DNA from: a virus
Length of the DNA: 64,000 nt
Virus record (IMG/VR): IMGVR_UViG_3300009149_000024
Span: 7,775 to 71,774 of that record
Reading direction: 5' to 3' (one strand)
Shown: piece by piece, positions 54,468 to 57,021 of the stretch
Layout of the letters: the number at the start of each line of letters is the position of its first letter
Numbering within the stretch: position 1 is the first letter of the stretch
The notes under the pieces: model-generated
Seen by the model: only the letters and a program-made list of their open reading frames with translations
Told to the model about the DNA's origin: nothing
Database searches by the model: none
Program-made: the position numbers and the translations under genes

Positions 54468-56483
54468 TTAAAATAATCTCAATTGATTTGATGATACAGT
54501 TAGAATGTTATTTATTTCATTTTCAATGGCCTGGATATAATAACCTTTATCAATATTATATGATTCCCATTTAGGTTCCATTTTCATTTTGTTAAAGATT
54601 GCTTGTATCCATTTACCAGCTTCTAATTGTATTTCTCTTTTATCAACTCTGTTAACCTTTATAATTTTAACTCCAGTCTTAGATATATAATATCTATTGA
54701 TTTTTTGAAGTTCATCTTCTACAAAAGCACCCTGCTTGATTGATCTGGCCACACATTTCCAATCACCATTTGATTTGCTACCAATACAATAATCAAGTAT
54801 ATTTTTGTTTTCATTTAAATATTCTTCAGGAAGAACATTATGCACAAAATACTGATAGATTGCTTTAGGTATAACTAACTTTGATTTGTTTTTGTGTAGC
54901 TGTAAATTGTGAAAATCAAATCTACCTTTTAACTTCACAGGAGCATAGCTAAACTTATCATTTTCTACTTTAAATAAATAATGTGGATCTGATTGTTTAA
55001 TTGCTCTCCATTTAGTAATGTCAACTTCTTTGTAGTCATTGATACCAATGTAATTGTTTACATCTCCTAATACCAATTTTTGGTATTGATCATGTTCTAA
55101 AGATAAATTGGTAGTTTCTTCCCACTCTTTACAGATAAGCATATACTCATCATAGTACTTTCTAGGTATTAATGTCTCAACACCATCTGTATTATGTAAT
55201 AATGCTATTGCACCTGGGATTCTTTCCATAATTTGCTCATAAAGCATCATCAAACTCAATTGACCATTGATTGTAATCCTCATACATAACTCAGGATCAT
55301 AAAAAAAGCTGTTTTCATCATTGCTAAGACCAAAAGTAGAGTTAAGTATAATCTTGTATACATAATTCATTGGATTGCTCTTAGGGATCTTCTTACGCTC
55401 TTCAAAGAACCATTCATATTGATCACAAAATTCATCAACAGGAAAATGTCCCGGAGACCATCTATTTCTGATTGCAAGATTAGGATAAAAACTGGTAACA
55501 TCTGAAGACATAATAATCATATCTTCATTGCTTTCATAAACACCTTTTTTTCTTGCACCATGTACACCACCTAAACCAAAGTCAGTTTTAACATCTCTGT
55601 AATTCAAACTATACTTGAAGCTGCCTTTAAGATTCTTTCCATTTATTTCTAATGCATTAAATCTTTGCAATAAAGTACTAAACTCACTAGAACTAAACTT
55701 GATATAAGGTAGAATGATATCTTTAATTTTAATGATATCTCTATGTGTTCTCATATCTTTCAATTCTTTTTTAGGAATATTTAGTTTTTCAGATAAATAA
55801 TAGCCAAACAACTCTTTACTAATTCTTGGTTCAGAAGCACTAAATAAATTAATACCATATGTTTTAGTCAATTCTTTTCTTAATCCTATCTGTGATTTTG
55901 ATCTGTTATATATTTCCTTAGTTGACCTTACATCATTAATACAGTATTCCAATATTGTATCAATCTCCTCTCTTGTAGTTATTGCTGATTCATGGTGAAT
56001 AGGCATTTCAAGAATGTTATCCCAATCCATGCTATATTGGATCCATTTCAAACTAGAACGCTTTGCCGGGTTGTCCCAGTGATGCATTTTAAAGATATCT
56101 ATTTGACCAATTGACATTTTCCATTGAGGGTAATCTGAAAACTCCTTTTTATTGCTTTTCTCTATAGCTCTTTGTGCACATCTATAAATGATATTTGCAA
56201 TTTCACAACCCGTAAAATCCCACCAATCATCATGATTATCTAATATAAAATGTGTTATCTGAGCATCAAAAGCTAAACCATTATAAGATATGTGCCATTC
56301 TTTGTTGGCTATATTTGTATTTAAAAAACTTACAAACTTATCTAAATCATTTTGCAGGTCATGAATAACAAAGACTTTTGTTTCCATAGTCTTATAATCT
56401 TCAAATACACCTGTAAAACAATTTTGAAGGGTCTCGTAGTCCATAACCCAGTGTTTTTTGGGTATTTGCATTTTTTCATTCAT
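54468..56483 (-). CDS. polB: DNA polymerase family B with 3'-5' exonuclease
   Basis: ExoI DYET, ExoII YNGLAFD, ExoIII YCINDV; polymerase motifs DVTSFYP, KIILNSTFG, NTDG. Confidence 0.9.
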   Translation of the reverse strand: MNEKMQIPKKHWVMDYETLQNCFTGVFEDYKTMETKVFVIHDLQNDLDKFVSFLNTNIANKEWHISYNGLAFDAQITHFILDNHDDWWDFTGCEIANIIYRCAQRAIEKSNKKEFSDYPQWKMSIGQIDIFKMHHWDNPAKRSSLKWIQYSMDWDNILEMPIHHESAITTREEIDTILEYCINDVRSTKEIYNRSKSQIGLRKELTKTYGINLFSASEPRISKELFGYYLSEKLNIPKKELKDMRTHRDIIKIKDIILPYIKFSSSEFSTLLQRFNALEINGKNLKGSFKYSLNYRDVKTDFGLGGVHGARKKGVYESNEDMIIMSSDVTSFYPNLAIRNRWSPGHFPVDEFCDQYEWFFEERKKIPKSNPMNYVYKIILNSTFGLSNDENSFFYDPELCMRITINGQLSLMMLYEQIMERIPGAIALLHNTDGVETLIPRKYYDEYMLICKEWEETTNLSLEHDQYQKLVLGDVNNYIGINDYKEVDITKWRAIKQSDPHYLFKVENDKFSYAPVKLKGRFDFHNLQLHKNKSKLVIPKAIYQYFVHNVLPEEYLNENKNILDYCIGSKSNGDWKCVARSIKQGAFVEDELQKINRYYISKTGVKIIKVNRVDKREIQLEAGKWIQAIFNKMKMEPKWESYNIDKGYYIQAIENEINNILTVSSNQLRLF

Positions 56484-56982
56484 GTTTTTTTAAGTATTTA
56501 ATTGCTCTTTCCAACATTTCAACGGAATCTTTAAGTTTACCCATTCCTGAATTACAAGGGGTACATAATAAACCTCTTGCTTTTCCTGTATCATGATTAT
56601 GGTCTACATCAAAATTTCTTTTAAATTCATTTTGATGTTTACCACAAATATCACAAAGATTAGATTGTTTATCAAGCATCAATAAATATTTCTCATAAGA
56701 CATATTTTTTATACCTGCATTTTTCCAACCATTCTCTTTATTTGTAATTGGATTATAATAAGATTTGGCTTTAGCTCTAACTTCTTCAGGATTATCAATA
56801 CGCTGTTGTTTTCTTTTGGCATTGATTTCATTTTTATTTTTAGAATATCTTTCTAAAGCTGCTTTTTTAGCTTTTTCTTTATTTTTTTTATACCAATTTC
56901 TTTGAGCTTCTGCTTTTTGTATTTTTCTTTTTTCTGTATCCATACTACAATATACATAAAAGATTATGAAACACCAAATTTA
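56421..56982 (-). mobile_element. homing-endonuclease cassette carrying a recoded 5' end of polB
   Basis: stranded MKHWVMDYETLSN* upstream, recoded KHWVMDYETLQN downstream of the endonuclease; AATT present at both junctions. Confidence 0.8.
56476..56943 (-). CDS. endonuclease VII-type (His-Me) homing endonuclease
   Basis: Q..LCDIC...VDHNHDTGKARGLLCTPCNSGMG..KD motif; basic helical N-terminus. Confidence 0.85.
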   Translation of the reverse strand: MDTEKRKIQKAEAQRNWYKKNKEKAKKAALERYSKNKNEINAKRKQQRIDNPEEVRAKAKSYYNPITNKENGWKNAGIKNMSYEKYLLMLDKQSNLCDICGKHQNEFKRNFDVDHNHDTGKARGLLCTPCNSGMGKLKDSVEMLERAIKYLKKHE

Positions 56983-57021
56983 ATTAGATAATGTTTCATA
57001 ATCCATTACCCAGTGCTTCAT
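56980..57021 (-). pseudogene. stranded original 5' end of polB (MKHWVMDYETLSN*)
   Basis: 11 of 12 residues identical to polB residues 10-21. Confidence 0.88.

Follow-up and report, generated by a model that had tools for sequence, protein, structure and literature searches.

In a window of 64,000 nucleotides (nt) from the phage record IMGVR_UViG_3300009149_000024 of IMG/VR, the 5' end of a DNA polymerase gene (polB) is interrupted by an endonuclease gene. An insert of 562 nt with exact boundaries separates the native start of polB from its body, and it holds an intact gene of the Endonuclease VII (EndoVII)/HNH type followed by a second, synonymously diverged polymerase start. The comparisons revealed relatives whose sites are precisely empty, several lineages with the same layout, intact endonucleases under constraint, and decayed and scar forms. 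We consider it likely (with a probability of about 85%), on the basis of sequence comparisons, that the insert is a free-standing homing endonuclease cassette bringing along a cleavage-resistant copy of the displaced gene end as its own rescue, and that the coding sequence of an essential gene has been invaded without an intron or intein, by supplying a replacement gene end.

Organization of the interrupted polymerase gene

All relevant genes of the window lie on the minus strand, and the locus is composed as follows.

57093..57509, minus strand: upstream gene, an open reading frame (ORF) of 138 amino acids with no Pfam or PHROG match; the left flank, common with empty alleles
57021..56980, minus strand: stranded native polymerase start, a mini-ORF (MKHWVMDYETLSN) of 13 codons plus TAA
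56981..56420, minus strand: 562-nt insert relative to empty alleles (putative mobile cassette), with AATT at both edges
56979..56944, minus strand: cassette leader of 36 nt, from the mini-ORF stop to the endonuclease ATG, homologous among cassettes
56943..56476, minus strand: intact Endonuclease VII/HNH-type gene, 155 amino acids (PF02945, phrog_2914)
56483..56420, minus strand: substitute polymerase start and N-terminus (MNEKMQIPKKHWVMDYETLQN), borne by the putative cassette and synonymously diverged from the native one
56483..54468, minus strand: DNA polymerase in use, 671 amino acids, family-B-like, beginning MNEKMQIPKKHWVMDYETLQNCF (phrog_1252)

The stranded copy reads ATG AAG CAC TGG GTA ATG GAT TAT GAA ACA TTA TCT AAT TAA, and the copy in use, at 56456..56418, reads AAA CAC TGG GTT ATG GAC TAC GAG ACC CTT CAA AAT TGT. 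AATT occurs at 56985..56982 and again at 56423..56420, and the 562 nt separate codon 13 of the native polymerase gene from codon 14. The TGA of the endonuclease lies within the start of the polymerase, where the two reading frames overlap by 8 nt (ATGAATGA). A first-pass annotation, made by a model from the letters of the window, had described these codon strings, the AATT at both junctions and the overlap of the new polB start with the endonuclease stop, and all of this was correct on re-reading. Its counts were also confirmed: 11 of 12 residues are identical between the copies, and seven of the nine identical residues with synonymous options use a different codon (K, V, D, Y, E, T and L differ; H and N are the same).

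Empty alleles and boundaries of the insert

IMG/VR was scanned with the window polymerase; 180 relatives were confirmed, and the best 80 (71–96% identity) were kept. None of these 80 had the endonuclease within 4 kb of the polymerase (tblastn, E 1e-5), and the site was uninterrupted in 79 of them, the exception being locus L001. Six relatives (L002, L003, L004, L005, L006, and L036) begin exactly MKHWVMDYETLSNCF, with the polymerase start sequence MKHWVMDYETLSNCFTGVFE, and this is the 5' end that the first-pass annotation had predicted for empty alleles. The N-terminal extension MNEKMQIPKK, which the same annotation had expected to be absent from endonuclease-free homologues, was not the start of any of the 160 relatives that were examined, be they endonuclease-free or otherwise. 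The interpretation offered there, that the polB N-terminus was duplicated and recoded around an EndoVII-type endonuclease, is supported, with the origin of the recoding refined below.

The empty alleles of these six relatives set the boundaries of the insert. By blastn, 37 nt of the empty site (locus positions 4001–4037) align twice with the window, at 57018..56982 and at 56456..56420; the alignment of the left flank ended at 56982, and that of the right flank began at 56456. The flank with the upstream gene aligned to L002 at 91.5% identity, likewise reaching 56982. The extra sequence of the window is 525 nt between the two 37-nt versions or, equivalently, a 562-nt insert bounded by AATT.

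The left junction is bridged by contigs X2 record 3 and X6 record 7, and the right junction by X6 record 5 and X4 record 4, the runs X2, X4, and X6 coming from three studies other than the likely source of the window. The evidence from sequencing runs is drawn from X2, X4, X6, and X15, with the runs of small word share (X7–X14 and X16–X20) and the parts without cover left aside. A mis-assembly joining two strains might be suspected, as the virus record is a metagenome-assembled contig (71,774 nt; 62% complete according to CheckV) and 37-nt repeats can mislead assemblers. The bridging contigs speak against this, as do the same layout in six other loci from separate assemblies and the difference between the two copies at 10 of 33 positions, which means that they are not a collapsible repeat. 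We regard a mis-assembly as practically negligible, and the arrangement is not an assembly artefact.

Recurrence of the layout in other loci

A metagenome scan yielded five endonuclease homologues (L164–L168) with 63–68% identity to that of the window, whereas the polymerases of L164–L167 are just 44–57% identical to the window polymerase. In L165, L166, and L167, the endonuclease lies between an orthologue of the 57093..57509 gene and the polymerase. The L164 contig has the endonuclease upstream of the polymerase but begins too close to include the upstream gene, and L168 has the upstream gene and the endonuclease on a contig that ends before the polymerase. Stranded starts are found just upstream of the endonuclease in all five, reading, from L164 to L168, MRTHWVMDYETLS-stop, MRHWVMDYETLT.., MRTHWVMDYETLSK-stop, MKQNWVMDYETMSN-stop, and MRTHWVMDYETLS-stop. 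The more distant locus L084 (endonuclease 45% and polymerase 49% identical) also has a stranded start, MRDKKFWVMDYETIV.., and the three-part layout is thus present in six further metagenomic loci, all from separate assemblies.

The leader that follows the junction is homologous in all seven cassettes (alignment A4), with the common block ...TAATC(C/T)nTTTTGTATATTTGTAnTATGGAAACA. Wherever the endonuclease directly abuts the polymerase (window, L165, L167, and L084), the stop and the start overlap by 4–8 nt. Over 27 nt, the native consensus is matched better by the stranded than by the in-use copy in each of the six two-copy loci, the respective mismatches being 1 vs 8, 4 vs 9, 0 vs 4, 3 vs 5, 3 vs 8, and 7 vs 10.

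A second scan of IMG/VR, with the L167 polymerase as the query, returned 80 loci, 78 of which had no endonuclease-like gene. The endonuclease-free loci L199, L200, L201, L204, and L205 begin MKQNWVMDYETMSNCF, which is the stranded copy of L167, including its unusual Asn and Met. The flanks of L167 are 98.1% and 97.1% identical to L199, and 26 nt of L199 (2517–2542) aligned twice. Similarly, L234, L235, L236, L247, and L250 natively begin with MRTHWVMDYETLSNCF, and this is how the stranded copies of L164, L166, and L168 read. Each clade has kept its own native start as the stranded copy, and the in-use starts are foreign. Since the stranded copies are clade-specific in two clades, the same site appears to have been invaded repeatedly and site-specifically; retention of the native start beside a foreign in-use start is as expected from double-strand-break repair that keeps the left flank of the recipient up to the break. 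The Ser codon before AATT is AGC in L167, which is cassette-like, and TCA in the native L199, suggesting that the left exchange point shifts by a few bases.

The H-to-N and L-to-M differences of L167 had also been considered as decay of the stranded copy, an idea that was dropped since they are the native sequence of that clade.

Scar and decay forms

L001 is the closest relative of the window (96% identical in amino acids and 94% in nucleotides) and has no endonuclease. The position of its native ATG is fused to the last 13 endonuclease codons (MLEKAINYLKMYE-stop), and this remnant overlaps a cassette-type start, MSKKHWVHDYETLQNCF, in which the string ACCCTTCAAAATTG is common with the in-use copy of the window. 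The stranded copy is wholly lost from L001, and the polymerase ORF is intact from the cassette-type start. L001 was the only one of the 80 best first-clade relatives with an endonuclease remnant. In L196/L197 (the same sequence), MRQHWVM is joined to the last 27 endonuclease codons, after which come another ORF and then the in-use start.

The locus thus displays the features of a free-standing homing endonuclease gene: a presence/absence polymorphism at a fixed site with precise empty sites, in two clades; spread independent of the host gene, as judged from the comparison of endonuclease and polymerase identities; and degenerate copies belonging to a cycle of gain, decay, and loss (the L001 scar and the internal deletion of L196/L197). 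The possibility has to be weighed that the endonuclease is instead a resident junction resolvase of the replication module, like T4 gp49, and that the duplicate is a neutral leftover of a rearrangement without homing. The T4 resolvase belongs to PF02945, the genes around the endonuclease serve replication and recombination (the polymerase and a PD-(D/E)XK exonuclease at 58104..59108), and the window copy is without the Cys-rich module of most relatives. A resident gene would, however, not be expected to be missing at precise empty sites from 79 of the 80 close relatives, with a scar in the remaining one, nor to occupy the same junction where polymerases are 44–57% but endonucleases 63–68% identical. 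The two clades that keep their own native start as the stranded copy require repeated site-specific insertion, and we find the resolvase explanation very improbable.

Divergence of the two copies

The stranded copy matched the six closest empty alleles (L002–L006 and L036) at 30–32 of 33 nt, whereas the in-use copy matched the native alleles of the 80 loci at merely 20–27 of 33 nt. In a position matrix built from 50 unique native alleles, the stranded copy scored 56.8 bits, above all 50 natives, and the in-use copy 30.7 bits, below all 50. Sliding windows of 33 nt along the polymerase alignment were as mismatched as the in-use copy in only 18 of 1963 cases with L002, 6 of 1963 with L004, and 9 of 1963 with L036, and the divergence of the in-use copy is therefore more than chance. 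A paired comparison of 27 nt between the window copies gave six synonymous and no non-synonymous codon changes. The relative frequencies of the in-use codons in the 28 long ORFs of the window were 0.14 for GAC, 0.17 for TAC, 0.18 for GAG, 0.05 for ACC, and 0.20 for CTT, the G+C fraction at third codon positions of these ORFs being 0.158.

The in-use copy had been described as recoded. Its synonymous divergence was borne out, but recoding in place was not, since the start overlap recurs in other cassettes (L165, L167, and L084) and in L001, which has the string ACCCTTCAAAATTG as well. The in-use copy is thus probably a part of the mobile cassette and arrived with it. As to its donor, the exact 35-nt in-use string gave no match in IMG/VR.

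The endonuclease

The endonuclease matched Pfam PF02945 (Endonuclease_7) over residues 81–153 with E 3.8e-24 and 84.8 bits against a cut-off of 23.6, and the best PHROG match was phrog_2914, endonuclease VII (E 1.1e-26). In the PDB, it matched Hpy99I (E 2.1e-11) and T4 endonuclease VII (E 6.3e-4). The residues C97, C100, D114, H115, H117, C127, C130, and N131 were invariant in 19 aligned family members, and in T4 endonuclease VII and Hpy99I the same residues stand in the Cys, Asp-His-x-His, and Asn columns. We take these eight residues to be the zinc-binding Cys and the catalytic Asp-His-x-His and Asn. By both the profile cut-off and the conserved residues, the protein is an Endonuclease VII/HNH (beta-beta-alpha-metal) nuclease. 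The ratio of non-synonymous to synonymous substitution rates was 0.14–0.48 in all 15 pairs of intact endonucleases, and these are under purifying selection.

The endonuclease is present as a single copy in the 71,774-nt virus record. A large protein collection contained 18 clusters of homologues with 56–74% identity. An IMG/VR search with the endonuclease alone gave just two loci, with 51% identity over the C-terminal 72 residues, and a search of IMG/VR with the 19-member alignment gave nothing above 45% identity; loci with close homologues were obtained from the metagenome scan only.

Another gene of the EndoVII family, 38% identical, was observed in L131, which is on the same IMG/VR contig as L004; it lies about 4.3 kb upstream of the polymerase, the polymerase site being empty. 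These phages seem to carry several EndoVII-family endonucleases at different sites.

The polymerase as the probable target

The polymerase matched PHROG phrog_1252, DNA polymerase, with E 9.7e-133. In an alignment (A3) of six polymerases that are 46–71% identical to that of the window, W12, D15, E17, T18, N21, and F23 were invariant, and the duplicated stretch encodes the invariant N-terminal D-x-E motif. This is presumably the ExoI motif of proofreading polymerases. In phi29 polymerase, the ExoI motif is similarly near the N-terminus.

A profile of six relatives matched Pol epsilon (E 1.6e-4) and archaeal family B polymerases (E about 1e-3 to 1.6e-3) at positions 320–484. The single polymerase sequence gave no match in a search of the PDB, and the only Pfam match on the polymerase, RNase_H_2, was below the threshold. 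The assignment to family B is thus weak but consistent. The string DVTSFYPN is, we assume, motif A.

Polymerase matches about 50–180 nt longer than the rest (2043–2169 vs about 1990 nt) were seen in L201, L213, L214, L215, and L225, suggesting an internal insertion in some polymerases. A related polymerase of Cellulophaga phage phi14:2 (KC821624.1 / NC_021806.1) was matched in two pieces, and the annotation under the match consists of two 'putative DNA polymerase' genes and a hypothetical protein. The phi14:2 gene may be another interrupted polymerase gene.

Proposed mechanism of homing with rescue

In the proposed mechanism, the cassette would consist of the leader, the EndoVII/HNH gene, and the new polymerase start, with about the first 21 codons respelled. 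In a mixed infection, a relative without the endonuclease would be cut by the enzyme in its native sequence, at AATT or close to it; the predicted target duplex is the stranded copy continued by GTTTTACAGG... Repair of the break from the cassette-bearing genome would copy the cassette in, with homology provided on the left by the upstream gene and the stranded copy and on the right by the polymerase body. The carrier would be immune because neither copy contains the whole site: the right half is missing from the stranded copy, and the left half is respelled in the copy in use. The polymerase would be translated from the new ATG, probably coupled to termination of the endonuclease through the ATGAATGA overlap. 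After fixation, the endonuclease would decay and the resistant allele would remain, as it may have done in L001. Cutting, the position of the cut, immunity, and translation from the new ATG are the steps that we infer here from the arrangement and spelling of the copies.

Several observations weigh against homing with a rescue copy. The cut site is placed solely by where homology and respelling end. Distant EndoVII-like genes (39–42% identity) lie directly upstream of the polymerase in L223 (1938..2498) and L226 (1935..2495), with no recognisable stranded copy in L223 and just a doubtful remnant (MRTH MRTYLFCFIV) before the endonuclease in L226. The window endonuclease, like P0002 and P0003 (the other forms of 155 amino acids), is devoid of an N-terminal Cys-rich module of 26 residues with two CxxC-like pairs, which is present in 16 of the 19 family members; the module may be a lost or exchanged DNA-binding element, and its loss may have altered or abolished DNA recognition. 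Rare-codon density was not distinctive as a test of recoding, as 74 of 660 twelve-codon windows of the polymerase hold as many rare codons. Each single synonymous variant of the in-use copy, except for the Gln codon, is present in some native allele, and immunity can therefore not be assigned to any one position; part of the divergence of this copy may be plain foreign ancestry and not selection. Finally, a 195-nt contig of X15, an RNA-Seq library, joins 56419 to 56982 and lacks exactly the 562 nt. It has no mismatches, one extra G at 57046 (intergenic), and four letters that fit either side of the joint.

The X15 contig is what one would see if the 562 nt were an intron-like element removed from RNA, the mini-ORF being exon 1 and the mRNA encoding the native N-terminus. 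The last base of exon 1 would be T, and T is the last exon base at group I 5' splice sites. A short, unannotated first exon adjoining a homing endonuclease is known in phages from the terminase gene of ICP1 (PMC10448857). On the other hand, no Rfam family, whether of introns or of other RNAs, was found in 54000..58500 at E up to 1, the sole match being a chance small nucleolar RNA elsewhere, and the covariance models gave no ribozyme core of a group I or group II intron in this region. The endonuclease ORF takes up all but 94 of the 562 nt, and these do not suffice for a ribozyme core of their own; the insert ends in G in none of the five possible boundary registers. The in-use copy retains its ATG and amino-acid sequence across cassettes despite many synonymous changes, which is unexpected of an intron; L001 has lost the stranded copy, yet its polymerase ORF is intact from the cassette-type start; and a further ORF lies between the endonuclease and the in-use start in L164, L166, L195, and L196.

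DNA can also be present in RNA libraries, and X15 comes from another sample than the window, so that the contig is accounted for by an empty allele of a close strain. The DNA run X6 likewise shows empty alleles of relatives, as loose ends at 56982. An intron is in our view most unlikely to account for the insert, and we read the X15 contig as the empty allele of a near-identical strain, although processed RNA would look alike. If this is so, the insertion is recent, or its loss is precise. It is also conceivable that the cassette is, in addition, removed from RNA by a process of neither group I nor group II, that the native N-terminus is made alongside the substitute start, and that the X15 joint is the product; we would be surprised if this were the case. 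Thus, a homing cassette with a rescue copy is the reading that we prefer.

Relation to known systems

Endonuclease 'mobile ORF' hybrids have been described in fungal mitochondria, in atp6 of Allomyces macrogynus and in atp6, atp9, cox2, and nad3 of a Glomus sp. (PMC3630166), and in Endoconidiophora the C-terminal parts of cob and atp6 are duplicated next to degenerate endonuclease ORFs (PMC6279837). The phage cassette is like the fungal mobile ORFs in that the endonuclease ORF travels with a foreign gene end, which joins the gene body and is used; in that the displaced native end persists as an unused duplicate matching close relatives; and in that the inserted end is far more diverged in DNA than in protein. 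The fungal elements, however, are of the LAGLIDADG or GIY-YIG type and lie at the 3' end of mitochondrial genes, whereas the phage element is of the EndoVII/HNH type and lies at the 5' end of a DNA polymerase gene, to which it supplies a start codon overlapping the endonuclease stop. A linked foreign gene end that replaces an unused native end is thus common to both, and the nuclease type, the gene end, and the mitochondrial setting are not. Among the described systems, the fungal mobile ORFs are the closest. The phage cassette would work like them without being a member of the group; the integrity of the polymerase ORF and the L001 form suggest that the substitute start is used.

The Seg and Mob genes of T4 are free-standing phage homing endonucleases that are located between genes and spread by intronless homing. 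The endonuclease genes beside essential genes in ICP1 are also located between genes (PMC10448857). With these, the present endonuclease has in common that it stands alone and adjoins an essential, conserved target gene, that its presence or absence is polymorphic among relatives, and that the target copy of the carrier differs in sequence. The Seg, Mob, and ICP1 genes leave the neighbouring ORF whole, whereas here a gene start is duplicated and displaced. We know of no duplicated, displaced gene start around free-standing endonucleases of the T4 or ICP1 type, and no phage report of such a start around a homing endonuclease was found in the full-text literature searches made.

In Aeromonas phage Aeh1, nrdA is reportedly split by mobE. 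'Fractured genes' with split inteins have been described as well (PMC2677866). In both cases, as here, an endonuclease gene lies within an essential coding region without a self-splicing intron. In those systems, both pieces are translated and then assembled or protein-spliced, whereas the 13-codon upstream piece of the present gene would be replaced and not reused.

Synthetic 'cleave and rescue' and 'home and rescue' gene drives combine a nuclease directed at an essential gene with a recoded rescue copy. The phage cassette resembles them in pairing a nuclease that would target an essential gene with a respelled, presumably uncleavable copy of the targeted part. Unlike the drives, it is natural and protein-guided, resides in a phage, and supplies only the targeted gene end. 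As with group I intron-encoded homing endonucleases and collaborative homing, the site lies in the conserved coding sequence of an essential phage gene and leaves a short upstream piece (PMC10448857). Unlike in intron homing, no ribozyme was found here, and the displaced codons are duplicated and not spliced back.

Besides introns and inteins, a respelled replacement gene end would be a third way for a homing endonuclease gene to reside inside an essential phage gene. The cassette would thereby be a natural counterpart of the engineered 'cleave and rescue' drives and a mirror image of the fungal mitochondrial mobile ORFs. Metagenomes contain the full allelic series of empty, occupied, decayed, and scar forms in at least two phage clades, so that the target, the cut site, and the changes conferring immunity can be tested directly with synthetic DNA. 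As to annotation, the arrangement accounts for short orphan ORFs in which the beginning of the gene after the next is repeated, and it is a caution that phage polymerase genes can have foreign 5' ends.

Additional features of the cassettes

Small Cys-rich (zinc-ribbon-like) ORFs were observed between the endonuclease and the polymerase in L164 (885..1235) and L166 (about 2070..2280), and just upstream of the stranded start in L164 (upstream of 260) and L168 (about 440..680). Other small ORFs lie between the endonuclease and the polymerase in L195 and L196. Evidently, additional cargo can travel with the cassette.

The endonuclease start of L164, L165, and L168 has a 13-nt identity, TATGGAAACAAAA, with codons 32–36 of the L004/L036-type polymerase (MetGluThrLys in both), at a similar distance from AATT in the two. 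When the leader was compared with the native polymerase continuation as its possible decayed remnant, this identity was the only signal; shuffles reached the scores of the TATGGAAACAAAA pairs in 3–7 of 500 cases, but in 44–479 of 500 against the natives L019 and L057. The identity may be what remains of an originally longer duplication, or it may have arisen by chance.

An octamer, TAnnTTTG, precedes the endonuclease ATG by 5–15 nt in five of the seven cassettes (L164, L165, L167, L168, and L084), and in L166 and the window it is one change off. It resembles what we take to be the -7 promoter element of Bacteroidota and would, on that assumption, hint at the host group.

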